A stretch of 58,169 nt of DNA, counting the filler, from Sluysia triapertura (taxonomy: Eukaryota): the NCBI GenBank assembly GCA_046118255.1. It is 4 parts of 4 records of this genome, joined end to end, with 100 filler letters (N's around TTAATTAATTAA, not from the genome) between each part and the next. Parts side by side here need not be neighbours in the genome. Positions count along the whole stretch, not along the records: positions 43,206 to 58,169 come from JBJNIA010243214.1; 3 more parts are not named here. One strand, 5' to 3'. The notes below the pieces were generated by a model. That model was not told the DNA's origin, made no database searches, and worked only from the letters and a program-made list of their open reading frames with translations. Every line of letters begins with the position of its first letter. Position 1 is the first letter of the stretch. Positions 9,481 through 58,169 of the stretch are shown here, piece by piece. Made by a program: the position numbers and the translations under genes.

Positions 9481-10269
9481 TTTATTTTATTTATTATTAT
9501 TAAATTTTAAAATCTAAAAATTAAAATTTTTTGGAGGATTACATTGTAGGTCTTTCTTAGATTTGGATTTTCGGGAAATTTGCAAATTACTTTTATCATT
9601 CAGATATTTACTTGAATTATTTTATTCCTATTATTATAGTGATGTGAAATTTCTCTTGTGAGTTTCGTCAACCTTGTTTTATTAAATAGATTATGTAGTG
9701 TCCAACTCAATAATTCGAAATTTTAATTCAACAATTCACAACATTTTATAAGTCTAAACATTTTAGACATAAATTTCATAACATCAAATTTCCATCTACA
9801 AAAATTAATTTAAAACTTTATTCTCACCTTCTCAAAACATTTTTAATTCGTAACTTTACATCATTAAAACTACATTCATTTCAGATTAACGTACATTTAA
9901 AATTCATTAGAAACATTTTATTCATAGTTCCATAACAGTACAATCATAAGTATATTTGTTAACATACCACAAATGCCTTTTAGAATGTATCAAAACACCT
10001 GCTATATTTTATTTCAAATTCACTAAAATCATTTTCCATACCGCAAAACATTTTAATTCACAGTTGAAACTATCAATCCACATTTTTAACTCAACTATAA
10101 CATTTTTACGCATTATTTAATAACATTAAAATCACAATTACATCTCAAACTATCAAATTTACACCTTAAAGTCAATCGAACACATTACAAGCTTACAATC
10201 TTTTATCACTCAGTTCTAAGACATATATTAATCAAAGAAATTTAATTATGTTGAGAAGATTTTCAATAA

Positions 10270-10620
10270 ATGAAAGATCATGTAAGAGGAGTTTTAAGAT
10301 TTATGCATTTCGATTTTATTTTTATTTATTATTATTATTCCATTTTATTTACTGAATCAATTATAATTATCAACATTACTATCATTCAAGACACAATCTA
10401 TGCTAGCAACTGCCAGTAATTGATAGTTTTAATTTAAATATAACTGTATGACTGTATTAATTGTCAATCACTGACAGTGACATGAATTCAAGACTAAGAG
10501 ACAAAACACACAAAATTTCACCAAATCTATGATACCTCAGTACTAAAATTACGCTTCTTTGGATTGGACGTCCAATCATCACCAGTAACAAAAATAGCAA
10601 AATTTGATTTTATAAAGAGA
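10270..10620 (+). promoter_or_regulatory. Conserved terminal promoter cassette of element A
   Basis: aaagatcatgtaag..ttatgcattt, (TAT)n, agcaactgcca..tgacagtgacatg, perfect palindrome GATTGGACGTCCAATC (10562-10577), TATAAA at 10611, ATG at 10685. Confidence 0.7.
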
Positions 10621-10684
10621 CTAATTTGATAATGTTGCACCATTTTATTATGTTTACATTAATACTAATAATTACCAATAATTT

Positions 10685-11830
10685 ATGGCAGATTTTGGTA
10701 AGCATTTGTATGATATTGTAACTACTAATTATTCTTATCTTAATACCATGGTTGAATTTGGTTTACAGCACAGTTTAATCGAATCATTAGATGGAGATTT
10801 ATTGAAAGTAAAATCAGTTGATAACAGAAGAAACAATTACGTAATTGTTCCAAAGTGCGTGATTGAATTAATGAGTCAATCAAATGAAAGAAGCTCAAAT
10901 GATTATTACGATTTCGAAGTTTTACCAAAGTTTTATGCGGGCAAAACGATCAATACAGTATCATTTCTAATTCTTACCTATGGATTAATTTGTCACAATT
11001 GTATTTCTTATGAAACTGGTGGCACCAACGAAAACCTTGTTGCTATTTATAATGAAACGTTGAATAGATCTAGTGTTAAAAGCGAACAATACGATGATAA
11101 TGTAACATTAAAAGAAGCTGTGTATGATGTTTATAACAGCAAATGTCATGATGAAATAAAGCAGATAGTGGATAAAAGAATACGTAACTGTTTTCTATAT
11201 TTAGTTCTATATTTATATTGATTATACTGACGAAAGATTCGTTTGTTTGAGTGAGATGGCTAAGGATTTCATAAAAACATTATTAACTAGAAAAACAAAT
11301 GATCGATTACTATCTGAAGCTTGTTTGAAACATAAGTGGATCAAAATTAATTGGAGACTACTGACGATTATGTTTAATAATATGATGGCAAGGGCAAATG
11401 GTGATGGTCATACAGTTTATCATCAATTAGGAGGACCGATGGTATTTGAAAAATCGGAACAAAAAAGCTTAAGTCTTACTCGTACGTTGAAACAATCTTT
11501 TTCCGAAGTCGAACAGCAATATCCCGGATCTTCATTAAATTTCCTTATCAGAACTTTAAATCGATTGGGAATAGAAAATGATGTTGATATGGATGAAACA
11601 TCTATGACCGATTCTGGAGGAATTCGCAATATTCAAAGACCAATTTATAGTGTCTTGGAAAATCGTGTTCAGATTTTTAAAAAGTGTTAAGTAGAATACC
11701 AGATGAAATTAGTTACAGAAGAAGATTTTTAGATACTATGAAAGAGATTTCTGATGTTAATACAGAAAATGATGTAGATTTGATGGAAATGCGTGATGTT
11801 GTTCTAAGATTTAAATATATTAGTGGATAT
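10685..11830 (+). CDS. Divergent CAMK-group (DAPK/MLCK-like) kinase C-lobe-derived protein, probable pseudokinase; split over three frames
   Basis: ERFVCLSEMAKDFIKTLL..K..DRLLSEACLKHKWI fits kinase subdomains X-XI; VEFGL (DFG-like) and LTYGLI (subdomain IX-like) lie upstream; no VAIK or HRD seen. Confidence 0.55.
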
Positions 11831-13307: not shown

Positions 13308-13731
13308 TGGTTGGTGAAGTGTTTGATGAATTGATGTTGTGAATCTTGATAAGGTGTTTAGTGAGTGAGTGTTTTGAGTTGTTGGGATGAATGTAAGAGT
13401 TTATTGAGTTGGAAATGTTCAGATGTGAATTAATTTATTGTCGGGTGTAGTTTGATGAAATGTTAAAGTAGTAGTTGTGAGTATTGTTATTTTATGTGAT
13501 GAATTGTGTGGTGATTGTAGTTGTAGAGTGTGATTGTGGTGAATTTTATTTTAATGAATTATTTTTAATTTTGAGTTACGGAGTTGGCCACTACATACCC
13601 TTTTATTGTATTTTATTATCGCCTTTCTTTATCACCTGACAGAGCTAATTCTAAAACTATACTTTTATTACTATTCTAACTATTTGATATTTTTATACTT
13701 TTTATGCATTATAAATTGGAAATTTAATCAA

Positions 13732-18532: not shown

Positions 18533-18542
18533 GTTTATTCTA

Positions 18543-18668
18543 TGTGAGAAGGAAAAGTGTATAGAGTAAAGAGTTTAAAATTTAACGTGAGTTCACCAAC
18601 GTACTGGGCTTAACAGCGAGGGCCAGCCGTTGGGTTTTAATGCGAGAATAGATATTTAACTGTTAAAG
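18543..18668 (-). mobile_element. LTR 3' end (5' LTR of the deleted element; true extent is longer)
   Basis: Near-identical to 42989-43105; homology begins exactly at TGTGAGAA, as also at 49667. Confidence 0.8.
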
Positions 18669-24600: not shown

Positions 24601-25609
24601 GATATAATTACTGTTAGAGTCAAGGCATTTGAATATTTATCAGAATAACATTTAAAATAATTAAAGTGTTAAATTTAAACTTAAAATAAATTTACGACCA
24701 CCGAAATATAACTACGTGTGGTATATTTTATATTGCGAATATTATTCGAATTATTTTGTAGACTTTGTATTTGTTACTTACGTTTGATAAATAAATTTTT
24801 AGTTGGTTCAGTTTATATTATTTGATTTTAAGGAGAAGAATTTGAATTTTGACATTAATCTAACAAAATTGCACTTCCATCTCTTACACCAGAGACAAGT
24901 GAACAGTAACCTCCACTTATTATTATAAGTGTTAGAAAATAATTACCTTAAACTCTAGTTACAATCTTAGCACATATAAGTCAAGTAGGAAGTCTTAAAT
25001 TAATATTATTATTATTAAAGTTACTTAACATTTTTATTCTAACATATACATTTTTTCTCATCCTATGTTATTATATGACTTTTGATATCAGCAATTTATC
25101 TACTTATTTATATTATATTATAACAAATGTTTCATTGTTTACTTGAAAATTTCAACGAGAAGATCTGGTGAATCTGCATCTTGAATTAATGAACTAGGAT
25201 CAAGCGTAATTCAAATGAGAGATAAGTAATGGAATATACGTCAAAGGCGACAATTACAAGATTTGTAAAAATGATTACGATAAAAACAAATTGAAACTTT
25301 TTTACATTGTGAAATGTTTTTATTTTCTCTATTTTAATTTATTTTATTTTATTTTGAGTTAATGAATGATTTAACATTTAAAAATTGAATTATGAGACTG
25401 TTAGAAAAATGGAACTTTTTCATAAAAATAATTAAGATTTTAATAATTTTATAATATTCAATAACTGATTAATGTAATATTATAATTTTATTTTTTGTAC
25501 GGAATATTANNNNNNNNNNNNNNNNNNNNNNNNNNNNNNNNNNNNNNNNNNNNTTAATTAATTAANNNNNNNNNNNNNNNNNNNNNNNNNNNNNNNNNNN
25601 NNNNNNNNN

Positions 25610-28200
25610 AAAAAATCGACTGCTTACATCAAATCTTTACGAATCCAATTACCAATTTTGTTGTGCATAATTACAACAAGTAGTCAATATTATGGCATCA
25701 ATACGTTATGTAGTGAATGCACAAATATGTTTACAAGATTCATTGTGCAATTTCGAACAATTCGTAAAATAGTATCGCATCATCGTTCATCCGAATTATT
25801 GAAAATTCTGAAACGCATTCTAGCGGTTATACACAAAAAGATGGTACTAAGCTGTTTTGTATTGATTTTATGGAATTAAACAAAATTACTAGAAGAGATG
25901 TTTTTCCGTTATCAAGAATTGATGAGATATTAGATAAATTATGAAACGCAATTTTCTTTACTACATTAGATTTACACAGTGGTTAATGGCAGATGGAAAT
26001 AGCTGAAAAAGATAAACACTAAACTGCACTCACTTGTGGAGATGAATTATTCGAATGCGAAAATATGCCCTTCGCTTTAACAGGAGCATCGGCAACATTC
26101 CAACGCTATATGAATTTCGTTCTTTCGGGTTAGAAGAATGTAATGGTTTATATTGATGACATTATAATATTTTCAAAGGATTTTGATACACGTTGCCGAT
26201 ATAGAAAATATTTTAAGATTACAAGTTGCTGGATTAAAAATTAGACCTACTAAGTATGCATGGCAGAAGAACAATTAGAATTTTTAGGACATATTGTATC
26301 AAAGAATGGGATAAACCAAATCCACGGAATATTGAGAAAGTAGTTATATTTCCACAACCTAATAATGTTGGCAAGTACAGAGTTTTTTTAGGTTTAGCTT
26401 ATTACTACCGTAGATTTGTTATAGATTTTGCTAAAATTGCACATCCGTTAAGAATTTTAACTAAGAAAGATGTCGAATTTAAAATAGCGAGATACACAAA
26501 TTACAGCATGTAATAACTTTAAAAAAGTTAATAACTGCACCAATTTTATTTTTTCCTGACATTAATAAACCTTTTATTTTAACTACCGATGAAAGTAATT
26601 GCGCAATAGGCACAATACTAAGTCAAAAAGATAGAGAAAACTTAGAAGGAGTAAGAGCATACTCCAGTAGAAGACTGAACAAAGCAGAAAGGAATTACTT
26701 GACAATAGAAAGAGAGTGTTTAGCAATCGTGTAAGTTTGTAAATTATTTCGTCATTATTATTATGATAAAAAGTATTTCTGTACACTGACTATAAGCCAC
26801 TAACTTATTTATACAATCATAGAGATGAAGTAAGTCGATTAAATAGGTGGTTCATTAAGTTATCCGAATTTGATATGGATATAATCTAGAAACCTGGCAC
26901 TCTAAATAATAGTACAGATTGTATGTCTCGACTGACGAATGTTAATATAAATTTTATTGATATCACGAATATATCGGGTAAGGCTGAAGATCCTAAAGAA
27001 ATAATAAAACATCAACATGATGATGAAGAAATTTCACTCGCTTTAGAACAACTTACTAAAAGGCAACATCAGTCCTAAACTGGCTGAAAAACTAACAATA
27101 ACAAATGGAGTTTTAAGATTTAAGAATTCCAAAGATCAATGGAGAACTCTAATTCCAAAATCCTTAGTCACTCCACTTCTCATACAATTTCAAGATGGAC
27201 AATTAGGTGGTCATCTTTCCAATAGAAAAACACTGTCACGAATAAAGGATAAATATTTGGATGGTATGGAAGCAGATATAAAGAAATGGTATTACGACTG
27301 TGTTGTTTGTGTCAAAATAAAAAAATTGCAGGTGTTAAAGTAAAGGTGTTAAATGAATACCTGTACAATTATCGCCAATGTAATTGACGGCTATGGATAT
27401 AATTGGTCCGTTGCCAGAAACTTTAAAAGGAAATAAATATATTTTAGTTTTCGCGGATTATTTAACTAAATGGCCAAAGGCTTACCCGATGCCCAAGCAA
27501 AAGGCCGAAACTGTAACTCAGATATTAGTTGAGAAAATTATAATAGATATGGAGCTCCAATAAAATTATTAACAGACCAGGTAGAAATTTTAGAAGTGAA
27601 ATCAGTTGATAAAATTTTTAACATAATAAGAATTTATACATCTCTTTACCATCTGCAAAGTGACGGTCATGTCGAAAGATTTAATGGAACTTTAACTAAC
27701 ATGTTACAATCGTTTCTAAATGATAGACAAACCGATTGAGATCTATGCATTGCTCCATATTTGTTCGCCTATAGAAGTTCTGTACATCCTACTACCAACT
27801 TTACACCTTTTTATTTAATGGACGGTAGACATATAAATATGCCAGTGAGAACTACTAACTTCGCAATACTTAGAAATTCCCGATTATGCTACAGTAATGT
27901 GCAAAAATCTACAAATTGCATGGAAACATGCTGGTTTACAAATAAGATACTTTCAAGAATCATATAAAGAAAGCTAAGGAGCATAATTTTAAAATAGGAG
28001 ATAAAGTTTTAATAGGTCACTCTCCTAAGCTTCACAAACCTTTTAAAGGACCATACGAAGTTGTCAAAACTACTTCAACTAATTTATATACTAAGGACCC
28101 TAACAAGATCTACTCGGAAACATTCGGTGTACATGTTAATCGATGTAAGTTAGCACCAAATAATGAATATAATTTAAGAAATAGGATTATTAATAAGACT
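25610..28200 (+). mobile_element. pol: Ty3/gypsy pol pseudogene: RT - RNase H - integrase - GPY/F
   Basis: FPLSRIDEILD, LDLHSG*WQ, MPFALTGASATFQR, VYIDDIIIFS, FLGLAYYYRRFV, AERNYLTIERECLAIV, GGH..KT, MDIIGPLP, DYLTKW, SDGHVERFN, KGPYEV; many stops and frameshifts. Confidence 0.97.
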
Positions 28201-28339
28201 GTGTTGAAAGTAATACCTAAGAAAAAAGATAGACAAGCCACATGTTATTCATTCATCAGTTGATAAGAAAATAATAATGATGTTAAATTCTTCACTGAAT
28301 TTAAATTTAATTTATCATATAACACGAAGCGTCCAGATA

Positions 28340-28866
28340 AATCGAAGATGGATTTGAGCTGTTTTTGATACTGGCGCGAGTAACTTATCGTTAATTACAA
28401 TATGTTAACTAATTTAGAAATTTTTATGATGCATCAACCAGCACTAACTTTCTGTAATGTCAACAATACTCCCTTTGACATAAATGGGTTATTACAATGT
28501 CAAATTACGATTTTAGATACGAATGTTTGTGCTCCAATACTAGTATGAGATAAATGTCCTTATGAAATAATTAATGGTTTATATGTAATCAAACATTTAT
28601 ATATAGTAATTCATAGAAGACGCGGATTTGTGGAAATACCAGTAGACTCACGCATAATTTTAGCGCAAGTGTTTCTCCCATCTATAGACGTTCAACCAAA
28701 TCCAACACAACAAGTGGTAGTACATGATTTTATAGCACCACATCACACGCATTTACCAGGTGTTCCTACACCAGACTTTATGGGGGATGAAGATGATTTT
28801 AATATTTTGTTGTTAATTATGAAAGAGCGTTGTATGATATACAATGAGTTTGAGGGCGTTAAATAA
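28340..28866 (+). pseudogene. Retropepsin-like aspartic protease ORF located downstream of integrase
   Basis: AVFDTGASNLSLI at 28358, then after a frameshift NVNNTPFDINGLLQCQITIL...ILV*DKCPYEIINGLYVIKHL (flap-like and ILG-like motifs); continues into ORF 28630-28866. Confidence 0.65.
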
Positions 28867-29360
28867 AAAAATGAAGAGAGATACAAACTGATTTTAAACC
28901 TTGAAAACTTATACTCGTTTTTGTTATTAAAATGTAACCACGTCTTATAAATCAAGATATGACATTTATGAATTACTTTGTGATACATTAAAGACATGAT
29001 TATCTTAAAAACATGCGTGTTTAAAATTGTAATTTCCGTTTATTCGTTCACATTGATTAAACTTCAATTTATTAATAGGTATTTTCGACAGTTTTTGACC
29101 AATCATATTTTAATACATAAATTTATTTTTATTTTTATAATTTTAATTTTATAATATTAATTCAAGAAAAATAATAATTTCAAAAATAAAAATTTAGTTT
29201 AACAATCATAATATTTTAATAAAATTATAAAATATTACTAATTTAAAAAAATTTTTAAATTTTATAAAATAAGTTCAATCAACAATTTAAAGTTTTCTTT
29301 ATTTTTTTTAAATTTTCTTTACATTCTTTTACATTTTTTACTACTTTTTATCTTTAAAAA

Positions 29361-29429
29361 GTAGTCGCTCTTTGGTAGAGCATTCGAACTGCATACATAA
29401 TGTCCCGGGTTCGATCTCCGGTCAGTCCA
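29361..29429 (+). tRNA. tRNA-Cys(GCA)-like pseudogene or SINE head
   Basis: tggtagagcattcga (A box), ctgca anticodon region, gtcccgggttcgatc (B box), then TTTT; acceptor stem does not pair. Confidence 0.65.
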
Positions 29430-30039
29430 TTTTATGAAGTCTAACAATAATATAAATATACATTTATTACAAAAATTGGATCTTTATAAAAATGATTATT
29501 TCTAACAAATGTTTTAAATTCTTTTCCATGTGGTGGCCCAACCTAATATCTTAAAATTTTAACTTAACAATACACATAATAACCAATATTCAATAATTAA
29601 TTCCTTTTATGATTCTGTAAAATTGTCAATATTTTCAAACATGTTACATTCAAAAGTTTATTACATTAAAATCTTATTCGACATCGAAAATCATCAAACG
29701 TACAAACTTTACTTAATCCAAAACATTTCAAGTTCACAATTCTCCACCACTCAATCATTAATATCATTGAAAAACAGTAAATTCACACCTCAAAATCATT
29801 TTTAACATTTCAATCAAAACAGAATTTCTTTTAATATCTATAACTGCGTGTCATTATTCTTTTACTTCTTCATAGGCTATTAAAAGATAATCAGACATAA
29901 TTAAAAGAATTCTATTTAAGAAAATTTTATTAGAAAGAAAAGAATCTGATTTATAAGAAGAAAGATTTATGCGTTTTAGTATAACTACCTCATTTATTCA
30001 TTTGTCACTTATTATCATTATCATTTTTATTTCTTGTAT

Positions 30040-30430
30040 ATTCAAAGGATTGTGTAAGAATTAAAAGGGAATAAAAAACTTTATGTATTATTTTTATTTT
30101 TCATTATTATTATTATTATCAACATTTTATTTCATTATCAATATCATTATCATTATTTTTATCATTTTTAGTTACACCATATGTTATGATAACTATTTAA
30201 CTATATTCAAAATAGATTTGTCTGCCACCATTTAATTACTAATTAATGAATTTTATAAACTTTATGGTGACATGCATACATTTGTACGTTGCTTTTACAC
30301 ACGACATTTTGATTGGCCATCAAATAATTTCTATTTTTGTTATATTTACATTGGATGCCCAACCATACCTAATTACACAAAACAATTAGTAGTTTAAAAA
30401 GCAGAAACACAAAAAGCAGACAAAAATTCA
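30040..30430 (+). promoter_or_regulatory. Left promoter cassette of element B
   Basis: aaaggattgtgtaag..ttatgtatt, (TAT)n, tctgccacc..ggtgacatg, tgattgg (30310), ttggatgcccaacc, aaaaagcaga x2. Confidence 0.65.
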
Positions 30431-30499
30431 TACATAAACAAGCCAATATAATTTACCAGACATACAGACGCATGCAGTGTAAAATTTTATTTCAAATGT

Positions 30500-31667
30500 A
30501 ATAAGTATAATTAGGACAATGCAAGAATTAGTTTAATGTAATTTTCAATAAACTAATTATATCAGTCTAATTTTAAAACAAATAATTATGTTGTTTCACA
30601 AATAATAAAAATTTTTGTAAAACAACATCGTCAAAAATTGAATTTTCATAGTGGATTTAAAAGTTAATTTCAAGAAAAATTATTTTTATTTTAAAAATGA
30701 ATTGGATATATTGTACATGTAGGTATAAAATTTCTCTCTCGATGAAAAACTGTAAAGCTTATTCAACTAATAAATCAATGTTAAATGTACAAGAAGTTAC
30801 CGTTCTAGCTCATCCTTGTTTTTGTATTAACGATGAAGTTGCTAATTTTAATTCTAAATTGATATCCCCTTTTGGGCATTTCCTAAGTATAAAAATAGGA
30901 GTACATCTAATGATTATATTTGTGATGGTAATGTGCACATGAAAAAGCAATGTTCTACGACAAACGACGTTGTGCAAGTTGCATGCATTTTGAGTATTCT
31001 TTCGATCATTTACACCCTATTAGAAGTTGTAAAAGTTTTGTGATGAATAAAGTGCACAATATAAAATCTGACGATATGAAAAATCAATGTATTTAAGAGT
31101 GAATTTTTCAAGAATAATGCTAACGAAAATAAATACCACAAGGCAGCACTTTTCTTATACCAATTAACAGAAACAGGTGAATGTTCCAGATATGTTAGAA
31201 ATTGAAAGTATTCTCATGGATCTTTCAAATTACAATGTGCTATTTATTGCACGTCAAATGCTAGTGACCACCATAAAAGAATACGAATCTTATTATCAAG
31301 TTCAGGAATCAGATCATACTTAGAAAAACCATCCAGAAAGGACGTTATAATTATCAATGATCATCAAATTAGCAATTCATCCGGTCATGTAATTCATGAC
31401 ATACCAGAAGTAATTAATTACTTATCTTTGTTTTTTCTTGATCATGACTATTTTATATGTTCAATTTTACTTAGAAAATTTTATGAATTTATCTGTGACA
31501 TTTTCAGAAAAATTAAGACAATTTCAACAATTTGTAAAAAATTCAAATTTCACAAAGTTTTAATTAATATATTTATAGAGAAATGTTGTGTTTGTGGTTT
31601 TGTTAAATCAAAATGGTTAAGAGTTGTAACATATTTTGAGCGTTTAGATCGATTTGGAGAAAAATAG
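30500..31667 (+). pseudogene. Left cargo gene of element B, Cys-containing, disrupted
   Basis: ORF pieces 30697-30942 and 31428-31667 with coding-like sequence between them, directly downstream of the cassette. Confidence 0.45.
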
Positions 31668-33559: not shown

Positions 33560-34470
33560 CGTTATACTTGTTATTGAGCCTTGACCTTGGTTGATTATCT
33601 AAAATAAAATGAACACTTAGATAATAGTTAGAATAAACAAAAAAATAATTACATTACGATGCTTGACGAACGGATAGTCAATTGTTCTAGTAGAAGATAC
33701 ATAATGTGTCCGACAAAACTTTGAACAGTGTAATAAAGTTGAATCGTTGTCACAACAATTATTGTCATTGTGAAGGTACTGTAAAGCTTGTAAAATTGGC
33801 GCCATTAATTTTAGATCTTTGAACAGTACACAATCCACCCATTTAATATTGTTTCTAAAAAATTAATTTTCAATAATCTAAGAACAGCTGTTGCTTTGCG
33901 CTTAAATACTTTTCGCATTATTTCTTCATACATATTATATAATTCACTAGTTCTGAAATCATCATCTTTATTAATATTCATTTGAATTAATGTATTATCA
34001 CTTCTTTCCTCTCTAAACATATTTTCTACAAATAATCTAGAATCGAAAATTATAAAATATCTCGTTAAAACGATTGTTATTAGTAACCGAGCTTGATCTT
34101 TGATAAATAATAAATAATTTCTATATATATCAATTAGATACGATGATTCAAAACTATTAATTTGAAACCATTTTCTTATCCATTCTAAAACTGGAACTAT
34201 ATATTTCGAATTGCATATAGGAGTTGGATAACGTCGTTCCGTACTATTAAAAATGACATATTTGAATTCGTTATTGTCAGTTGATACTAAATAAAACTTC
34301 AATAGAATATCATAGTGTGTTTCACATAACCTTTTAATTTCATTTACTAATTGACAAAATGATACAATTAATTCGATTTTTTAATTAAGTCTGGAATTAT
34401 ACTTTAATTTTTTATCCATTTAATTTTGCGTTAGTTAATCCAATTCTTTCACAATCTTCTTAAGAGCATT
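33560..34470 (-). pseudogene. Right cargo gene of element B, disrupted, with a probable small last exon
   Basis: ATG near 34469, ORFs 33811-34302 and 33617-33838, intron-like gtaatt...ttttag at ~33655-33598. Confidence 0.5.
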
Positions 34471-34554
34471 TTTCCGTTTTTGTATCAATACTATGTAAAA
34501 ATTGAATTGAATAGCTGTACAATTATTGAGTCACCAAAATTTCACACACTTACT

Positions 34555-34840
34555 TTTATTTATTTATAAGATGACCATTGATTGGTCGACTAATATTGGT
34601 AATAAAAATTTAGTGTAAAACAAAATTGATTGAGTGAAGAGCCATCATCGGTATTGACAGAAATGTATTTACAATGATGATAATAATAATAATAAGGTAC
34701 AATTTTTATAATTGAATAAAATTATAAAATTTAATGTTACTAATAACAACAATAATGTTGCTGTTATTATTAACACTAATTAAATGCAAAATACATAAAT
34801 TCCTTGTACATTCCACAAGAACTTTCTTTCTTTTTCTTTA
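34555..34840 (-). promoter_or_regulatory. Right promoter cassette of element B
   Basis: On the minus strand: aaagag..gtggaatg..tttatgtattttgca, (AAT/TAT)n, tgtcaataccgatgatggc, accaat..gaccaatcaatgg, ttataaata. Confidence 0.6.
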
Positions 34841-36899
34841 ATTTCTAACACATTTTGAATAAATTAAAGTAAATAATGATAGAATTGAGTATAACAACAA
34901 AATGTTATTATAAATGCATAATTTCTTGTATTTTTGAACATGATCTTGCTTTTGATACTTTATTAATTCTTAACATATTTTAAATCTAATTGAAGTAAAA
35001 AATGATAAATTTGAATGCAGTAACAACAATAATAAGATACACGATGTTATAGTTATTGTAGTTATTGCATTGCATAAACATGAATTCTTTAAAACTGTAC
35101 ACGAACTTCCTTTGAATCGTTAGAATTCTAAATATATTGTAATGAGCTTAAATATATTTGAAGCTAAAATCTTTCGACAAGGATTAGTTTACATGAATTT
35201 ATATGTTTGATTAACGTTTCGAGGTATGTTAATAGTTTTATGTCGTTTAGTGAAACAGAGAATGTTAGAATAGATTTTTAAATGGTGGTTTAAGTTCTTG
35301 ATTGAGGACGACACTTGATTATTGGAAAATCGTGAATTAAAGACCTATTAAGAAAAGTTTGGTTTAATAAATGTGAAAAGGTAAATTATAGAACAACTCC
35401 TATTATATTTGGAAGGTTATTGTGCATTATTATACGTGATTTGTTTTCTTGTTGCTTTAAATGTTATTATCTTTTGTGTTGTTAGTGGTTATGTAATGAT
35501 AAATGATGGATTTAAGGTGTTGTAATTGATTCGAAGGTATGGAATGGGTAATTTCGAATATAGTTGTTGTTTGGTTGTTATGAATGTAGAGTAACATGTT
35601 TTAGGTGGATTTGTTGGTGTAAATTGGTAATATTGGGTGTAATTGTGATTTGTATGTTGTGGAATTGTGAGTATGAATTGATTTTAGTAGGTAAACTGTT
35701 TTGTAAGTATATAGGAGATAGATGTATGAATGTTAGAGTGTTAAAAAAATATATATTAATTTTTAATAAAATTTTTATGGTTGTGAATGTTGGCCACGAC
35801 AAAGATCCAAAAGGAATTTATTCGGCTTGGTGATGTGGCAGAAATGTTTTTAAAATGCTTCAACTGATTTAATTTTTCATATTTTGTATTTCAGAGAAAG
35901 TTTTTTATTCAGTTATGTACTGTGTTGTACGATGTTTACATTTATATCCCACATTTTCATTCGTTAAATTTTAAAACAGGATTCAAAATTAATTTGTGTC
36001 TGTTTTTTATCCAATTTAAGATTTTAGAACGAAGATTTCAAGCCGAAATTAAAAAAGATGATGTGGTTTGTACAAAAAGATTTTTGTTTTACTCAATCAG
36101 TTGAATCAATATATTTCAATATTTTTCAAATTTCGAATATATCATCACGTTTCGTTTGTAGTTCAGATCACAAAATTTAGAAGTAGATAAGCATATTATC
36201 ACGCTACATTCAGAGTCAGATATCAGTAATTCACCAAGGAATAAGCAATGTGAATCAGAGTAGTTGCCATTATCAGAGAAGTCACAAAGATAGCCAAAAT
36301 TATCAATGATTTAAAAATCGACATGATAGCCATTTCTTGTCGTGAACTCACTTTTCGTCAGTGATCAAGCACTTGATAAAGTAACACAAAATTTAGTAAA
36401 GCCTTATAAACGAGCTGCAACGCTTAAAAACAAAAAATTCCAAATTGAGTCAAGGTGGCACCTAAGTTATCATCATATTTTTAATCAGAACAGTCACAGA
36501 TTTTAGTTCTTTTTGAAAATTTTTAAAATACTAAATTTAAATGTGTTGTGTGAAAGTAGACGATATTCAGAACTAAGTCGAACTGAGTATAAAACTCGAC
36601 ATTGTAGGTTCATTCTCTAAATCGTCAGACGTACTCACCATATGCCCACTATGGTGTGTTCCACACCGGTTCAAGATGACTCGTATTCAAGATTGTTTAT
36701 GTAATGGGTTACTCTCCATTCGTGGGATAGTGGGATAGTAATGGGTTAACCCGACCTATTACCATTATATATAGTGATGTTGGGTTTGTCTAGTTCGTGA
36801 ATATAAAAAGGTTATAAGGTTAGAGAATTAAAATATGTAAGAAAAAGTGATAAAAATATGTGAAACATGGAAATATGAATATAATTAAATATTGCTGAA

Positions 36900-38045
36900 G
36901 CAAGAATGATGAAGAAGGAAATGTTTATAGTCATTTGGAAATCGAATAATATCTTGGAGTTCCAAAGACTTGTGGGATATTAAGACCATTACAAGGGATT
37001 AGGAAGGGTTTGGTAAGATGTTTTAAAATATGGAAATACCTGGGAACTTCTGAGACCTTGATCTTTTGGAACATTTGAAGACCTTCGAGTAACTTTGTAA
37101 AACACCCATGGGCTTTTGAGATATTCAAGTAACTTTGTAAAATGTTTGAAATCTTTAAAATGTCCAACAATTAAAATTATGGTTAATAATAAATTTGATA
37201 CATTAAAAAAGAACGTTAAAAAGTAGAAAAAGAATCAGATATCTGAAGGTGAAGCCCTGCATATCTTATAAAGTATCTAAAACTTTATAACCATAGTAAA
37301 ACCGTTAAACATAAAATTAAGTTAAATTAAAATAATTAGTTAACTTAATTAAGAAAAATTACATTTGTATGAATAACTTTTGAATGCGAAATGCTATTTT
37401 AAAAATGTTACTGTGTACGTATTTGTTTTAAAGAGGTCTTCCGATGAAGATAAGATTTGGCAGAATTCATGCGAGAAAATCTTCTCTATTGAACAAAGTT
37501 GAATTTTAATTAAGTTTCAGTTTAAAATATTGAATTTTTTTATTTAAAATGATGAAAAGAAAATGAATTGAATATGAAATGATTGCTATGAAAGAGAAGA
37601 ATCCAAAAATGAGATTGAAATATTTGTAAAATTGTTTGTTTGGGAATGAGAACTTTAAACATTTTCCATTAGAAAATTGAGTGATAGGAATTGAAAATTA
37701 ATTGAAGTCTAAAAACTAAAGTTAAATTCATCATTTTTGAATATGTTGATAATAATAATTGTTATCTTCTAACAATAAATCAAGTAAAGTAGAAGAAAAT
37801 AAAGGTCGGCTGTTAATAGAACATTTATGTTCCGTTTGACAAGTCATACCATGTAATTTTCAAAATTGTTAGGGTCGTTCTAATCTTTAAAAGATGTTCT
37901 GATGATTTGTTTAGAAATATTTTTGATTGAGTTTGGGTATGATTGATTAACACAAAAGTATGAAAGGAAACACTTAAAGAATTTTATCACAACAACAAAC
38001 CAAATGACATTATTCGGAAAGAAAATCCATGCTTGGGTAATGCTT
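36900..38045 (-). pseudogene. Family 'X' (copy 3) with short-period repeat tail
   Basis: Colinear with 9000-9480 and with the reverse complement of 16485-17090; the tail also resembles 47300-47430. Confidence 0.6.
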
Positions 38046-38071
38046 TTAATTTTATTTTTAAGTTTTAAATA

Positions 38072-38262
38072 CAGTGGACGCTCTATATAAGCAACTCCTG
38101 TGAACCAGTTTTTATAATCATTAAATATTGAATTATAAAAACAATTATTATACTATTTTTAAATTTATTAGCCATTGTCATATGAGTTTTTTCCTAAAAA
38201 GTATAAACCTAAGTCAACAATCTCTATTCAAAAATTAAGTTGCTTATATAGAGCGTTCACTG
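38072..38262. mobile_element. Tc1/mariner-pogo-type MITE, 191 bp
   Basis: TIR CAGTGGACGCTCTATATAAGCAACT / AGTTGCTTATATAGAGCGTTCACTG (24/25), TA on both sides. Confidence 0.93.
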
Positions 38263-38349
38263 TATATTCTAACAGTTACACAAAACATTCATTTTATTTC
38301 AAAATATTAACTTGTAAGGCTTTTATTCTTTATTAGTTTTAACTTTAAT

Positions 38350-50799: not shown

Positions 50800-52150
50800 C
50801 TAAGTCCACCGAATCATCGTCCTGAAGGAGATAGTTATACCGGAACAAATAGTGAGAACCACTGTCATTTCGAAATTTCTGTGGAGATAGTAGTTGTAAT
50901 TCTGGATACTTTGTTGATGTCGTCGGTAAAGTAGTGCGTGGTGGATTCTATGATGACGAAGACTTTGATGATGTGTCTATTGATGATTTGGTCAATGATG
51001 GAGCAGATGATGGTGAAGAAGTTAAGGAGGAGATAGAAAAAGAAGTAGAAGGAGAAGATGTAAGTTTCTTCTTTTTTGGAGAGGGAGGAGAGAGCTTAGA
51101 ATTAGAAGTGGGAATGGTGGAAGGTTTTTTAAAGAGAGCGGGTGGAGGGTTATTACAGCGAGAAATGAATTGCAACTCTCGCTCCCTTATGAAATCAAGT
51201 AAGGTTACCAGTTCTGACGCCATCTGCCTGCATGTTAGTACTGGTGAAATTGGAAAAATGAGCCGCAATGTTTGACGAGCTCTACAAAAATATCGTCTGT
51301 CGAAAACAGGACCAAGTTGTGATTTGACAAGTTTATTATCCCACGTAGTAACCTAAAATGTATACTTAGCGTCTCAATGAGAAATTTAGGATTTAATGAG
51401 ACTGGAACTTTGTTCCGAAGGATCCCAATAATCTGAGGGTGGATGTCGTCGATATCCTTAGCCTGTTTAAGGTCGACATCCGTAACTACCTGAATGTTTC
51501 AGCGGAAGTTTTGAATACGGCACCGAGGTTTTATGAGGGCCTCGGTGTTAAATTGACGACTCTAAGGAGTACAGGTCACACAAATCAATTGCGGGTTATT
51601 TAAGAAATCTGTGGCATATTGGAAAGCCACGAACTTAAGTCTATCCTCGTTTTTACGCCGAAAGAAGAGGAACATGCTATATGAGGAGCCGTTTTTCCAT
51701 CGACTTATATTGTCGAGACCTTCAGCAGCAGCAGGAAAGAAGGAGCGAAAAGAGGAGCAGAAGGTAAAACAAAACGAAAAGCAAGATGAGTGGGAAATTC
51801 AAGGGCTTCCACCATAATTTTACAAGTTTTTGATAGATTTGACAGATGGAGGGTTGAGTGATTTTCTACACGTAATAACAAGGGAATCTTTTCAACCTCT
51901 AACGTGACTTTAATCGCCCCGCTCGCAGCTACTATATACATTGTGTCAAATTCGTCGGGCATATTGGTTAACCCTTGTAAAGAAATGAAAGGTATCTCTG
52001 GCGATAAAGCAAAAATGTGGGTTGCCACATTATCATTTAATTCGGACTTTAATTTACAGTCGTGGCAAACGAGTTAGGAAAGAATTTAGGAGTAATATTT
52101 TCGACACAAAATTTGTCGATAGAAGAATAAAAGATTTTGATTTGGTTGAT
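50800..52150 (-). pseudogene. LTR-retroelement accessory ORF, diverged homologue of 1137-2424
   Basis: ORFs 51705-52028 and 50948-51268 plus the intervening EDRLKFVAFQYATDFL...IKPRCRIQNF...AKDIDDIHP...VPVSLNP (with stops). Confidence 0.8.
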
Positions 52151-52319
52151 GGTTCTGGCTCGGAATGTTTTGACTAGATGTGTACTGGATTACAAAGATA
52201 ATTAGAGTTTACATAAAGAGGAAAATTCGTAATAAAAAATTAAAGAAAAATATTAAAAAGTAATTTTTTATGCCGATGTATTTCAATACTATAATAAACG
52301 ATAATAATTAGGAAATATT

Positions 52320-52803
52320 CTAATGTTTTAAAAATGGGTTACTGCATAATCTTGCATGCCTCTTATGAAATTTCTTAAGTTGGCGTCTTCTATAATTACG
52401 CCTTTGTGATTTAGTTAGTCCTGGTGGATAATCAGGTTTTGGTACCTGAAATCCATTATACATGACGGTGACGCCTGGAAAAATTGGAGGTTGATAAATA
52501 TCAACACTCGCATTCTCCTGGAGCCCATTATAAGCTAGAAGAGGAGTTGAGCCAGGTCTAATGTATTTAACGGAGAAATCGTAAGACCTACGAAATGATT
52601 TTTTATAAAAGATATTGCATTCGGTGATTGTGACTCGGCACAAAGGACAAGATGGTAAGGGAGTTCGGGCAGAATCGAACAGAAAATATAGACATCTAAA
52701 ATGGAAACGATGTCTACAAGGCAATGCGATAGCGTAATATCTGTCTATAGTCCTTCGACAAATAGAACATAAGGTGAATCGCAGTGATGATTGTGTGGTT
52801 TTG
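52320..52803 (-). CDS. RING-H2 finger protein (putative E3 ubiquitin ligase) with basic C-terminus; 3' exon
   Basis: Frame extends upstream of the listed ORF: CSIC-x13-CRH-x2-H-x2-C-x14-CPLC; acceptor-like tttttatttttag at 52804; tail KSQRRNYRRRQLKKFHKR. Confidence 0.85.
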
Positions 52804-53310
52804 CTAAAAATAAAAATTATATAATAAGATAATACTTATGAAAAATAGTAAGTAAGATAGATTTAAATTTTACACTTATAAAAATTTATTTTAACTAATT
52901 ATACTAGTAAAACTTATTCTTAGCTAATTAACGTAGATAATTTTACTAAAATATGAGTTTCAAAACTGTCCTGCCCGCAACCGAAAATGGACAGTTAACA
53001 GCCATCACCCATGGTTCGTAAACAGGGAAATGTCATCACTCACATTTTATGCCTTATATAATTTATATTTTAATGATTTTTATGTCTTATAAATAAATGC
53101 AATATGTATAAATGAAGTAACAAAAAGAAAACTTAGTAAAATATAATAACTAAATATAGTGTGATACAAATTTATAGAGGTAGCAGGATGACTTAAACGT
53201 GAGTAATTATAAGATTGTAGACTTATATTCTTACTTAATATATTGGTGTAATTAGTAGTTTTAGCTTTATTTGTAGTTTTTAACGTATTTAAAGTAGTAG
53301 TGATTTTATT

Positions 53311-54036
53311 TTATGTTGGATAATTTACAACATTTGATTTGTCTAAAACAGGTACTACTAGATCACATACTCTATATTTCGGCCAAAGTCCAGGAGTATC
53401 GAGAATCTCGTTGTAACGTAGGATCCAAACCTCAATGAGTGTGAGATTGTGTTCCGGTATAAACAGTAAATGAATACTGGTATTAGGTATTATTAGTGCA
53501 TAATGTTGTTCATTGTCAAAATGTGAGTCAAAACTATTACTAGTAAGATTCTTTTTATTTGATTCGTAACCTATCACTATGCTATGTTTTAGTAAAGGGT
53601 TTGCTATACGAACGAAGTTATTGTTTTCCCTGTATAATGTCATTAAGAACCTAATAGTCGTTGTTAGATGACTAAAAGTGCATGGTTTTGTTCGAATCCT
53701 TTAACTATCTATAGACTTGGCTTTCGAAATTAAATTGGTTATAAATTCTAAACGTAGAGTGACGTTGAATAATTGATTTTCCATCAAACCATCACAAGAG
53801 GCAATCCAGTACATGGTATATTTACTAACATCTAATTCCCGATTACACCATTTAGTTAGACAACAATGCATGGTAATATTAGTAATTGTAACAGTCTCAC
53901 TTCCTATTTTCGCGTATATTGTTCGTTGTAATGCCTTTAGTGTGATTCGTGGTTTTGTTACTATTGGTTTTGCGTGTATGTTAATTATACAAGTCATACA
54001 TATACATGCCAACATGACAGATTGTAAATTAGTCAT
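53311..54036 (-). CDS. Secreted Cys-containing protein; one ~240-codon frame interrupted by a single TAA at 53701-53703
   Basis: Signal-peptide-like MTNLQSVMLACICMTCIINIHA|KP; ORFs 53701-54036 and 53311-53643 are in frame, joined by 19 sense codons (RIRTKPCTFSHLTTTIRFL). Confidence 0.6.
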
Positions 54037-54324
54037 TTACCACCCTCCGTATACTAAAGGTGAATGATTATTTGTTGCATACTCATACACAGGAGGTTGT
54101 CTTACTGGAAATCTTGGTGGTGGTTCATAGTTATTTCTATGTGGAATTGTATAATGATCATCGTCGTCATCGCGACTATATGGCAAACATGGATATCTAC
54201 ACTTATTTGATACAAACATAATTATTACGAGTATAACAATAGATAGTGCAATTACAAATAATATTCCGGCTAGAATTAAAATTAACAATGCTGGGTCATT
54301 TTTTAGCATTTCTGATAGTGACAA
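54037..54324 (-). CDS. Small single-pass membrane protein with a PPxY- and Tyr-motif tail
   Basis: Hydrophobic ALLILILAGILFVIALSIVILVIIMFV, juxtamembrane Cys, DDDDD, YTIP, YEPPP, PPVY; TATAAAA upstream at ~54402-54408. Confidence 0.7.
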   Translation of the reverse strand: MSLSEMLKNDPALLILILAGILFVIALSIVILVIIMFVSNKCRYPCLPYSRDDDDDHYTIPHRNNYEPPPRFPVRQPPVYEYATNNHSPLVYGGW

Positions 54325-55000
54325 ATATTTTTGTGTTCCTTTTAGAACAATATGATTGTTATAGGTTTAGTTTGAAGTGGATAATGCTAGGAAGGACACC
54401 ATTTTATAGGTGCTTATGTATTATTTTTCTATTTGTTTTACATATCTCATAGATGTTAGTTAACTTAGAGGGCAATTTATAATTTTTATTACTAAAGATC
54501 AGATTGAGTGGTATTTTAAAAACATGGATACTTTTGCTGAATTTAATGGATGAATACTTAATTTAAAGTTTAGTATTTGGTCGATATATATAAATTTTAC
54601 TCCGTTTAATTTAATTCCGTTTTACTACAAATTTTGTAATGATTTTTAGAATAACTAAAACAGTAATGTGTATTAAACTTATATTCAAAATTGTTTTCTA
54701 CAATACAATTAGTTTTTATCAAATTGATTAAGATTTTAACAAAAAAATGATTGACTAAAGTTAATATTTTATTACAAATGAAAATACGAACAAATGAAAA
54801 CTTTTGAACAATTCTAAAAACAAGATTAACTGCACCAGGATGACCATAATATCCAATCCGCCACCGTTTCGTGTTCCAACAACTTCCTTGATCAACTAAA
54901 AGATGATTAAATACACAAATTAATTTAAAACTAACAGAATTCGAATGGCATAAAAAGCATGAAAATTATCTATGACAGTAACTCTATATTTCGCCAATAA

Positions 55001-55909
55001 CTAGATATATTGATCACTCCTTTGCATAATTGTAGCTCGAAATAAGTTACGTAAATTTACTAGAAAGTTTTCCACTTTATCAAGTACGAGATCGTTATTC
55101 TTGAATAGCCTACTTTCTAATATTGAAGCTTTAATTCGAACGGTTCTTATTCTTAATTTCACAAGTTCATATTGGTGCAGCAATATTTTAGTTACCGGAT
55201 CAATGAAACTCATTATTAATGTCAAGTTTAAATATTGACTGCATTGCATTAAACTAAAAGCATTTATTCCATGATAATGTACTAAAACTAAAAAACGATT
55301 AATAACATGCATTCTGAATAATAAAAGGTCTTTTTCATGACTAACACAAAATGGCATTAAACTGGAAACATTTATTTCATGATAATGTACTAAAACTAAG
55401 AAACGATTAATAACATGCATTTTGAATAATAAAATGTTATTCTCATGACTAACACAAAATGGAATCGTAACATATTTACCACAATTGTAATTATTAGACC
55501 ATAAAGATTTTGGAAGGTGGGCCCACTTTCTTGATATTAGAGATTTTAAGAATTCATGGTTTGATTTAAATCGATTCCAACAATTTATATTAATCTTGAA
55601 AATTGGTTCAAATACTAATGGATATAAATCGTCTATCATTAGATTGTCTGATTCTTGGGATAATTCCTTTGATAATTCTAGACAGTACATTTTACAATCT
55701 TTATTTCTTGAAATAAACGAAAAATTGTCAACACTTTTTACATTACAAATACTTCGTAATAGCAAAGAAGATTGTTTATCCTTTCGTTCCTTATAAATTA
55801 TGATCACATAATGATTAGAGTGACGTAAAACGCCAGTTAAGACATACGTTGGAAACAACATTAATCTCACATCGATATTAATGCATGGTCTAACTAAATC
55901 ATCGTACAT
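55001..55909 (-). CDS. Intact 302-aa cargo ORF of element C with an in-frame 36-aa tandem duplication; unknown function
   Basis: ATG-initiated ORF directly downstream of the promoter cassette; PFCVSHE..LLF.MHVINRFLVLVHYH.IN..SLM occurs twice. Confidence 0.75.
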   Translation of the reverse strand: MYDDLVRPCINIDVRLMLFPTYVLTGVLRHSNHYVIIIYKERKDKQSSLLLRSICNVKSVDNFSFISRNKDCKMYCLELSKELSQESDNLMIDDLYPLVFEPIFKININCWNRFKSNHEFLKSLISRKWAHLPKSLWSNNYNCGKYVTIPFCVSHENNILLFKMHVINRFLVLVHYHEINVSSLMPFCVSHEKDLLLFRMHVINRFLVLVHYHGINAFSLMQCSQYLNLTLIMSFIDPVTKILLHQYELVKLRIRTVRIKASILESRLFKNNDLVLDKVENFLVNLRNLFRATIMQRSDQYI

Positions 55910-55979
55910 TTTCGATATTCAAGTAAAAGAAAATTTGAAATTCTCTGTTTTGTCTGAAATTTTTATTTTTTGTCTGTTA

Positions 55980-57199
55980 AGAATTTTTCTGCCTTTTTTG
56001 GACTGTCTGCTTTTTATTGATTATTTTTAATTGAGACTATTTTTAATCCACCCAATCAGATTAGTAATAATAAGACAAAAAGTGATCATTCTGATTGGGT
56101 GGTGTGTTAATCGAAAAATGAACTCATTAAAATGCTGATGGCTGATTACTGACCGTCATCAACGTTGACAGTCTAATGAAAATGTACATAGACTGTCATC
56201 GTTAGTGATGGCAGCAACCAGTTTAAACGACGATAATTAAATTTTGTTTATTTTATTTTTATATTTAGGTAATTAGGAAGAAGAGTAATGATAATAACAA
56301 TAATAACAACAACGCTAATAGTAATATGGTTATCATTATTGTTATTGTGATTAAAAAATACATGAATTCTATCTTTTAAAAGTTTACACAATCTTTTTCT
56401 TTTAGCTTCTTTGATTTCTAGTATACATAATAAATAAAAGAAATAAAACTTATAAAATACCGTGAAGAAACAACGATAACGAGGTATATTACGTCTCAGT
56501 TATCGTTGCTTGTTGTTGAGATAATGAATCGTTTGAAGCTTTAATGTGTTTATTTATAAAATAAAAGAAATGATTTGAGTTGAAATTGAAACGAAAGATG
56601 TTGAAATAGAGTAATAAGATTTATTAGGATTTGGAATTAAAAGTAAGATTTGATCCATGAATATGATAGTTTGAGATGCTTAATGAAAAGTCAAAGTTAT
56701 TTTAATTTTAAAAGATGATTACAAAATAAATTTTAATATATTATAATGTTATTGCGAATAATTGTGAATGATGAATATGTGTATATGAAGTGGATTTAGG
56801 TCGGTTTTGTTGATTAAGGTTTTAGATGGAAATGATCTATGTTTCTGAGGTATTTGTTAGCGTTGTTTGATAATGCTATTATATTTATGATTTGTGAAGT
56901 TTATATTATGATTGTGATTTGTTTGTTGAAATATCTTATGAATGAATGTTGTGGATTATTTGAGATTAAATGTCGGAGTTTGTTATGCTATGGATGGTTG
57001 AAATGTTAGTTAGATTATTGATGTGTGTGAGTTGATGAAGTGCTGTAAACATCGAATATTATTTTATGATGTTTGTGTTGGTGAAGTTCGATAGCAAAAA
57101 GTGTGATTATTTTGAAAAGTGAATTTTGATGAGATTTAATTTGTGAATATTACATATGAAATTTTGATTAATTATAAATTATGAATGTTGGCCACTACA
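55980..57199 (-). mobile_element. Terminus and promoter cassette of cargo element C (other end not identified)
   Basis: Minus strand: TGTAGTGGCCAAC (57199), ~600-nt G-poor spacer, gaaaaagattgtgtaa..ttcatgtatt, microsatellite, hairpin 56161-56203, 13-bp inverted CCAAT pair 56048-56060/56090-56102, aaaaagcaga. Confidence 0.8.
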
Positions 57200-57521
57200 A
57201 CAGCAACTTATTAGAAATGAAATCATTAATCGAACTGTTATCATGTGTCTTCGCTATCCATTCCTTTTTCCAATTCATTATTTCTTGACACTGTATATCA
57301 TTATTGAAGGATGATGTTATTTTATTCATACAAATATTACAAATAGGTTTACCATTTGAAAAATGATACCATTTCAAATTAGAATCAGAATATTCTTTGA
57401 TAGCATGTAAAAAATATATTGATAAAGTTAAAAAATATTTGTTTTCACTACATTGTTTAATTAATTTCTTTTTCATAAGTGCTACAGTTTTAGAATTGAA
57501 ATTTTGCCGTAATTGATCCAT
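57200..57521 (-). pseudogene. Cargo gene of copy D, truncated by the terminus of element C
   Basis: The ORF's TAG stop is supplied by the TGTAG terminus of element C; contains CNIC. Confidence 0.6.
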
Positions 57522-57544
57522 CTCAACTTTTTTTGAAGTACAAA

Positions 57545-58030
57545 TGAAATCTGCTTTTTTGATTACAAGCCGAAATATTGTCTGGATTTAAAATTTTTAC
57601 TTGTCTGGATTTTTAATTGTGAAAAGAAAATTGGGAATGAATGTGCTATTTTTTGTATACCCAATCAGAGTATTTTAAGTATATTGAAAATTATCTGTGC
57701 TCTGATTGGGCGATAACAAAAATTAATTTTTAAAATAGATTGAGAGACCAACTACCGTGATGGGTATTGTCATTTTAATGGCAGATTTAAAAAGCACAAT
57801 CATCACTAATGAAGGTAGTAACTATTTTAATGTGTTGAATTAAGAATTGATGAAAGCATCAAGTATGACTAACAACGAGAATAATAAAAATGATGATGAT
57901 AATAATAATAATAATAGTAAGAACAACAATAATAACAATAATAATATTGTTATTATTGTGATCTGTAAATAAAATTGCATAAATAATCTTTAAGCTTTTT
58001 ACACGATCTTTTTCTTTTTGTTCTTTAAAG
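57545..58030 (-). promoter_or_regulatory. Promoter cassette of copy D (terminus predicted beyond the window)
   Basis: gaaaaagatcgtgtaa..ttatgcaattt, (TAT)n, tctgccatt..tgacaa, 11-bp inverted CCAAT pair 57660-57670/57700-57710, aaaaaagcaga. Confidence 0.75.
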
Positions 58031-58169
58031 TTCTGACATATAAATGAAATAAAAAGGAATAAAACAAATGTCGTATTGTGAAGGAACAACAATAACTAAG
58101 TATATAATGTATCATTTGTAGTTGTTGCTTCACAGTACGATAATGAAATCTTTAAAGTTATCTTAAATT

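Follow-up and report, generated by a model that had tools for sequence, protein, structure and literature searches.

A CCAAT- and hairpin-bearing cassette that probably forms the promoter region in the ends of a mobile element family of Sluysia triapertura

INTRODUCTION

Does an ordered series of short motifs that recurs in front of different genes act as a promoter, and what kind of DNA carries it? This question is raised by the region around position 56400 (minus strand) of the window, i.e., the whole stretch of 58,169 nucleotides of Sluysia triapertura DNA analyzed in this work, whose blocks reappear at five further sites. Sequence comparison leads to the answer that the cassette is probably a conserved promoter region situated in the 1.0- to 1.4-kb end of a high-copy mobile element family with exchangeable cargo. 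Promoters in element ends and the capture of genes are each already known. If the reading is true, one promoter/hairpin end of a multicopy animal family fronting at least five different genes, members of the death-kinase, PDCD10, and myotubularin families among them, would extend the theme of elements sustaining host cells that is associated with the Burro elements.

The window has a GC content of 25% and consists of four pieces joined at N-linkers at 13208, 25510, and 43106. These linkers (13208-13307, 25510-25609, and 43106-43205) are artificial stretches of 100 nt (N44, a 12-nt all-frame stop, N44) and generate the top-scoring "repeats" of the window. Decayed elements crowd the sequence, among them remnants of a Tc1-type DDE_3 and of Gypsy RNase H and integrase.

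RESULTS

Six copies and their motifs. The original prediction had placed ordered blocks at six sites, and all six were located, with the order as stated. Apart from the 56400 copy, these are the 10270 copy (9694..10684, plus strand), composed of terminus, C-rich stretch, and cassette; the 30045 copy (29529..30500, plus strand), with terminus and cassette; the 34825 copy (33811..35801, minus strand), which faces 29529 and comprises terminus, cassette, and the orphan ORF 33811-34419; the 38350 copy (38266..39460, plus strand), which has no terminus and is followed by a broken D/K-rich ORF; and the 58020 copy (57195..58169, minus strand), with the hairpins H1 to H4 described below, CAGAC repeats, and a 108-aa orphan ORF, whose terminus would fall outside the window. 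The best-matching pairs of copies align at only about 60 to 65%, and the 34825 copy is weak in global pairwise tests (z 0.1 to 2.4). When each copy was left out in turn from the HMM, four of the six returned as top match (E values of 1.6e-13, 5.5e-11, 8e-8, and 8e-6); the 10270 copy was at background level (3.6e-4, compared with 1.6e-4 for an unrelated TAT tract), and the 30045 copy was missed (E 0.05). The latter two are linked to the family through the shared terminus instead. The leave-one-out profile did not recover a seventh cassette at 32693 (minus strand). The segment 32400-32700 (minus strand) contains a CCAAT pair, an AAT/TAT tract, and TTATGCA upstream of the antisense ORF 32395-31550, and the other cassette blocks are absent from it. 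Partial duplications of the AAGAT..TTATGC block are present upstream of the main block at 35020-35140 (minus strand) and 29850-29980 (plus strand).

Motif slots were anchored at the last CCAAT box and defined after the copies had been viewed; since they are post hoc and the copies are homologous, the slot P values speak of retention and not of independent origin. Each copy carries at least one CCAATCA in its slot, and 8 of the 12 occurrences in the window fall inside CCAAT slots, for a slot expectation of 0.09 (6.97 expected for the window as a whole). TTYATGYA, the AAG..TGT block, and CT(G/A)CC are each present in the anchored slots of five of the six copies, TG(T/A)CA in those of all six, and AAAAGCAGA in those of three. 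In the 56400 copy, motif slots and arm comparison delimit a T-rich/A-rich stretch with the AAAGAT..TGTAA and TTCATGTA blocks at 56355..56452 (minus strand). Ten occurrences of CAGAC, against 0.33 expected, lie between CCAAT and ATG. This block, which five copies carry, had been only half noticed in the original prediction. Its representative in the 56400 copy, namely, AAAAAGCAGA and three CAGACA repeats in the CCAAT-to-ATG interval (55950..56016, minus strand), is a candidate core-promoter or 5'UTR block. An identification of CAGAC with the published planarian initiator was rejected; in the label and first matrix rows of the source, the initiator is given as TTTGTTTAAATA (PMC10558129). TATAWAW occurs in a single copy, once against 1.8 expected, and the predicted TATA-like element is therefore without support.

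CCAAT pairs. Two arrangements of the CCAAT boxes occur: in the 56400 and 58020 copies the arms are head-to-head and separated by 29 nt, and in the 10270, 38350, and 30045 copies they are tail-to-tail and separated by 4 nt. In the 56400 copy, the inverted pair (H4; 56048..56102, minus strand) has 13-bp arms 29 nt apart and contains candidate NF-Y sites. The three CCAAT palindromes quoted in the original prediction are all present. Its claim that their flanks differ between copies yet stay complementary did not hold: the four arms at 56048/56090 and 57660/57700 consist of a single 10-mer, none of the columns paired in the two copies shows a substituted pair, and a copy pairs best with its own arm in just one of four rows. 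What had been called an established NF-Y site is a motif match and not an established fact. The CA(G) 3' flank of CCAAT in NF-Y promoters is found in six of six copies, as CCAATCA; the C directly preceding CCAAT in the 56400 and 58020 arms is presumably not the preferred base of the vertebrate NF-Y matrix. In five copies the last CCAAT box lies 113, 144, 147, 166, and 166 nt upstream of the ATG, and in the 30045 copy 346 nt, with all ATGs chosen by eye. NF-Y/CCAAT boxes are typically located 60 to 100 nt upstream of the transcription start, and a TATA box is optional in promoters of this kind. According to PMC10558129, tissue-specific promoters of an AT-rich invertebrate contain CCAAT boxes together with A/T trinucleotide repeats, and TATA is present in only 5% of promoters. 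What stands of the promoter interpretation is thus the location of the cassette in element ends, the retention of CCAATCA at a promoter-like distance from the ATG, and the different genes behind it; the TATA box and the covarying CCAAT flanks do not stand. The covarying symmetry sits upstream of the CCAAT pair, in 20- to 23-bp stems that are far longer than the site of one factor.

A chain of hairpins. The predicted blocks form a chain of four to five inverted repeats of 55 to 75 nt at a spacing of about 100 nt, in the order H1 (AAC/GTT), a T-rich/A-rich pair with the AAAGAT block, H2 (AAT/TAT), H3, and H4 (the CCAAT pair). In the 56400 copy, H1 with its AAC/GTT arms is located at 56458..56530 (minus strand; homologues at 58071-58140 and 35014-35071). 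H2, at 56290..56352 (minus strand), is the (AAT)n/(TAT)n tract, which forms an inverted repeat in its own right and is found also at 38428-38466, 57926-57959, and about 34730-34782. H3, at 56146..56215 (minus strand), reads TGCCATCA..TGACA..TGTCA..TGATG and has a 23-bp covarying stem, with counterparts at 38529-38597, 10409-10478, and about 57750-57821. Eight of the nine long inverted repeats in the window are inside cassettes. Local shuffling, done three times, produced 2, 0, and 1 such repeats with the threshold unchanged; at a higher threshold the shuffles had none, compared with four in the actual sequence. Likewise, the cassette cores, which cover 6% of the window, contain 12 of its 35 folding peaks.

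The stems of H3 (TGCCATCA..TGATGG) measure 20 to 23 bp. Folding z scores are -9.4 and -6.5 for the two strongest copies, -2.8 and -2.2 for a second pair, and nonsignificant (-0.4 and -1.1) for the remaining two. Seven of 26 pairs have changed on both sides among three copies, which are the best folders and were chosen as such. Duplexes of own arms reach -27.1 kcal/mol, compared with -15.7 kcal/mol for cross-arm duplexes, and the own arm is best in three of four rows. H1b and H2 are of low complexity; the own arm is the best partner in none of 5 rows for H1b and in 2 of 4 for H2. On the sense strand, 160 stem positions comprise 146 Watson-Crick pairs, 4 G-U, 7 A-C, and 3 others, and the two strands fold alike, without strand bias. 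The best Rfam match in the window is that of H3 to a miRNA model, at 27.9 bits, below the cut-off of 54. Because of the lack of strand bias and this subthreshold match, the chain is read primarily as a series of DNA dyads and only secondarily as a small-RNA cluster.

Termini. The pattern TGTNGTG(G/T)CC(A/C)A, which was derived from its own matches, occurs five times in the window against 0.03 expected, namely, at 9694 (plus strand), 13595 (minus strand), 29529 (plus strand), 35801 (minus strand), and 57199 (minus strand). For four of these termini, a same-strand cassette follows 821 to 1,216 nt downstream. The fifth enters a gap: with its C-rich stretch it occupies 13308..13595 (minus strand) and faces 9694, its inner part being lost in the gap 13208-13307. 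No bases are conserved outside TGT, and inside it C exceeds G 1.9- to 5.4-fold. The 12-nt termini are almost invariant and the following several hundred bases scarcely align; the homologous ends, 1.0 to 1.4 kb long, are mutually weakly alike. In the 56400 copy, the terminus TGTAGTGGCCAA (57188..57199, minus strand) doubles as the stop codon of the ORF of the 58020 copy and is followed by a C-rich, G-poor subterminal stretch (56531..57187, minus strand) with 129 C and 24 G in its first 600 nt. The place of the absent terminus of the 38350 copy is occupied by a small TA-flanked inverted-repeat element at about 38070-38265. Two other sites, 22543 and 54629 (both minus strand), begin with TGTAGT, and the terminus profile finds neither of them. 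At 22505-22543, TGTAGTG and CACTACA bound a stretch of 39 nt, perhaps a remnant terminus, and the adjoining sequence is skewed over about 200 nt. A CACTA assignment was rejected because conservation falls on the wrong side of CACTACA, and a Polinton was rejected on the TGT end, Polinton ends being AG. All five termini have a TGTNR 5' end, which the available part of PMC2836005 gives as the end of Gypsy LTRs and Ginger transposons alike; the 5' motif of CsRN1 elements is TGTGGYG in the corresponding part of PMC3601003.

Cargo. Behind the 56400 cassette lies an intronless 302-aa ORF (55001..55909, minus strand) that derives from a myotubularin of the MTMR6-9 type and contains a 108-bp internal duplication at 55243-55458. 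A search of 1.84 billion representatives yielded a single relative, P0001 (E 2.2e-12, 31%). P0001 carries the Myotub-related domain (7e-15), and a two-sequence profile of both proteins matches MTMR6 (6e-8). The ORF alone gave no myotubularin match in Pfam or PDB and no match in the Atlas or in metagenome contigs, and protein searches with a possible continuation at 54609-54965 gave none either. The cargo of the 10270 copy (10685..11800, plus strand) consists of a 178-aa ORF starting at 10685 and then a DRAK/STK17-type kinase tail fused to PDCD10, with the frame broken near 11683; the ORF at 11205 matches STK17A (5e-8) and PDCD10 domains. A comparison of ORF 10685 with longer proteins gave no match, and ORF 10685-11101 has none in PDB, so that only the kinase tail is assigned. 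A possible GT-AG intron at 11103-11204 (plus strand), right before this tail, would point to capture as DNA; the myotubularin ORF is, by contrast, intronless. The four remaining copies are followed by orphan ORFs without clear mutual relation. That of the 30045 copy is the broken orphan gene X2 (about 30700-31660), with relatives at 3957-4620 and, weakly, at 12158-12484, and the ORFs 57195 and 33811 have no detectable relation to each other. As the ORFs behind the 56400 copy, the 10270 copy, and the others differ, at least five different genes follow one cassette. The orphan ORF 33811-34419 (minus strand) gave an Atlas lead to Pox_D5-type/giant-virus proteins with a score below 0.9, and its predicted model has a pLDDT of 43; PHROGs returned weak matches only (4 of 19, at E 0.009 to 0.05). 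A link of the cargo genes to cell death or autophagy is presumed from the names of their matches and from the cell-death roles of DRAK and myotubularins, and a present-day function of the cargo is doubtful because most of it is broken or orphan.

Abundance and relatives. Contigs of the public run X1, possibly the window's own source, were mapped on 43206-58169. Long single contigs gave a depth of 8.5 to 15.8; summed depth, which is inflated by AT tracts and does not equal copy number, reached 4,844 and 10,718 in the cassette bins and did not fall below 530 in any bin from 47.2 kb onward. Of the 18,362 contigs mapped, 12,998 were under 95% alike. Cassette and cargo thus appear repeated and diverged, given the summed depth and low contig identity, and the 100- to 1,000-fold pile-up over the region points to a high-copy repeat. 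Searches of viral and metagenome contigs with DNA patterns gave 4, 13, and 1 loci. None of the 18 matches the window or the profile of the cassette, so that these contigs yielded no outside relative. A published description of the cassette or the cargo set was not found in a literature that included few subscription journals; the supplements of the Burro genome paper and of the Burro1-IAP study, or Repbase entries, may already contain the family.

DISCUSSION

In a promoter-bearing element end of the kind favored here, an integrase or transposase would cut and join at the TGT motif, and NF-Y would bind the CCAAT boxes and start inward Pol II transcription some 40 to 100 nt downstream. The inverted repeats would act as DNA dyads or cruciforms, with arms kept matched to each other, and the captured host-derived genes (myotubularin, DRAK, and PDCD10) would be expressed in an accessory role, with a possible influence on the survival of the host cell. 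As to the class of this element, one with long inverted ends (Ginger-ended, Pack-type) is quite possible, a giant LTR is a tentative option, and anything else is improbable. Two inward-facing end pairs, 9694/13595 and 29529/35801, suggest a long-TIR element. Both pairs enclose an X2-like gene and then a convergent antisense ORF, a weak resemblance (E 0.007; z 4.2). The two ends within one pair are only weakly alike (z 2.1 to 2.4), the 9694/13595 pair spans an assembly gap, and the 14-kb contig that carries the 57199 end contains no partner for it. None of the five possible end pairs has a target-site duplication of 3 to 10 nt, the sole full match being a 2-nt TA at 9694/13595. No transposase or integrase Pfam match was found between the paired ends; nonautonomous copies would lack one.

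The likeness to known systems is partial in each case. Pack-MULE/Pack-TIR elements, as far as described in the accessible parts of PMC8277862 and PMC6431247, carry host gene fragments, including chimeras, between long ends, with some multicopy cases in animals. Host gene fragments are captured between the ends here as well (myotubularin, DRAK/STK17, and PDCD10), but the ends begin with TGT and are distantly alike, the cargo is far diverged from every host gene found, each end has a conserved, putative promoter and hairpin block, and at most 4 bases agree where a Pack-MULE would show a 9- to 10-bp target duplication. Ginger1 and Ginger2 share TGTNR termini and inverted ends with the present elements, whereas the TIRs of 40 to 270 bp, the 4-bp duplication (CCGG/CCGT or RTATAY target), and the integrase-like gene given in the available part of PMC2836005 are not found here; 0 to 2 of 4 bases agree in all five pairings. 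The TGTGGYG motif of CsRN1-type Gypsy U3 regions is exact at one of five ends and has one change at the other four, but those LTRs average about 330 bp with a 3' motif, according to the accessible part of PMC3601003, whereas here a U3-like stretch of more than 1 kb runs into an ORF. The planarian giant Gypsy elements Burro and GYPSM1 (PMC6431247, with PMC13465017 on a Burro1 IAP, both in part), which serve as an analogy, resemble this family in high copy number, Gypsy-type ends, host-derived apoptosis/RING cargo, and an AT-rich animal genome; here, in contrast, the cargo follows immediately after the putative promoter of the end and varies from copy to copy. No Pfam match to a Burro-type gag-env-pol polyprotein with BIR, BCL2, or MATH was found, only short decayed gag-like and pol pieces. 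Since a defining feature of Ginger, of Pack-MULE, of the canonical LTR, and of Burro is lacking in turn, the element is placed in no named class; by analogy, it may work in the manner of Pack-type elements, with cargo whose theme recalls Burro. It is doubtful that it represents an undescribed animal family with inverted Gypsy-att-type ends, each with a standard promoter and a covarying hairpin array that might be a small-RNA cluster, that swaps host-derived cell-death and phosphoinositide genes behind these ends as an expression-cassette transposon and marks a possible inverted-LTR route to DNA transposons. If the favored reading holds, the family would also test the proposal, made in PMC2836005, that inverted ends can come from two opposed LTRs.

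A rather unlikely alternative takes the ends as the U3 start of giant Gypsy/Metaviridae LTRs of several kilobases, with accessory ORFs inside or behind the LTR as in Burro and with the inverted pairs arising from nested or tail-to-tail insertions. The TGTNGTG start fits both published motifs, with the exact CsRN1 form at 29529, and one broken antisense gene is present both outside the terminus at 9694 (8970-9505) and before the 38350 cassette (37116-38070), so that the outer flank can be element interior; shared flank and Gypsy-type end together suggest a giant LTR. Gypsy pol/integrase remnants are found upstream in matching polarity (25.8 to 28.9 kb, plus strand; 17.8 to 17.9 kb, minus strand), there is an LTR-type end 7.5 kb downstream of 57199, a primer-site-like TGG stretch comes after a related end at 18543, and Burro elements carry apoptosis and ubiquitin domains in the accessible part of PMC6431247. 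However, no primer-binding site or LTR end stands right behind any of the six cassettes, and a polypurine tract is missing at four of five termini (3 to 8 purines of 15), which could, however, be 5' or solo LTRs; the purine-rich run (11 of 15) that precedes 13595 speaks for an LTR. No near-identical direct-repeat pair surrounds gag-pol in the four pieces of the window, and a separate LTR, about 550 bp long, may account for the CTCACA ends (depth peaks at 49693-50191). The sense-strand GT-AG intron in a RING gene (52946-52804) and the internal layout common to both inverted pairs also count against it. Were the ends ordinary giant LTRs, the significance of the family would shrink to an unusual U3 architecture.

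Two further readings concern the cassette itself. We give little credence to the H1-H3 chain as an element-encoded microRNA/siRNA precursor cluster upstream of a CCAAT promoter, a reading compatible with the promoter-bearing element end. It fits the dimensions of such precursors (about 60 to 75 nt and about 22 bp), the concentration of inverted repeats and folding peaks in cassettes, the z scores of -6 to -9 for H3 in two copies, its covariation and own-arm preference, and the Rfam match, and there is a precedent in the miRNA clusters of foamy-virus LTRs, where hairpins are grouped in a terminal repeat with a Pol II promoter (PMC3993851, in part). Unlike in those clusters, strand bias is lacking and no mature arm of 22 nt is preserved; moreover, the Rfam score is about half the cut-off, H3 is weak in two of six copies, H1b and H2 are of low complexity, and the covarying copies were selected as the best folders. 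It is very improbable that the cassette is common by descent only, with template switching in AT-rich repeats making or homogenizing the palindromes and the CCAAT boxes being relics. The copies do lie within a heap of decayed elements, stem mismatches are mainly transitions without strand bias, and the leave-one-out profile missed two copies. Yet CCAATCA is retained in all copies at a steady distance from the ATG despite their low overall identity, the termini are near-invariant next to several hundred bases that barely align, and the diverged myotubularin copy remains open over 302 codons. This retention points to selection while the subfamilies were active, even if the present copies are dead.

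No tRNA genes were found in the window. Downstream of the myotubularin ORF, a repeated ORF cluster at 49667..54629 (minus strand; orphan ORFs also at 1056-2424) ends in an LTR-like CTCACA end and may be a separate nested element. This second repeated unit, present also at 109-2921 (plus strand), comprises a membrane peptide that has a PPxY-like motif, a glycosylation-rich signal-peptide protein broken by a stop, a RING protein encoded in two exons and bearing a basic tail, and three orphan ORFs that overlap and lack a database relative, in a tight stop-start packing reminiscent of viral genomes; the orphan ORF 1316 gave no match among longer and near-length proteins. LTR-type CTCACA ends were observed at 18516-18545, 42989-43105, and 49667-49850 (all minus strand) and at 290-445 (plus strand), with weaker ones at 21620-21695 and 7232-7291; in the end at 18543, the primer-site-like stretch starts after 10 nt. 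The repeated broken orphan gene, which points away from the termini and lies outside two cassettes, occurs at 8776-9505, 16451-16902, 37116-38070, and, weakly, 47300-47430. Decayed Gypsy pol, a gag-like piece, and an integrase tail are distributed over 25650-28863 and 40680-41700 (plus strand) and 17284-17931 (minus strand). Smaller remnants are a tRNA-like SINE at 29360-29430, the TA-flanked miniature inverted-repeat element at 38070-38265, and the Tc1-type DDE_3 fragment at 8159-8359.
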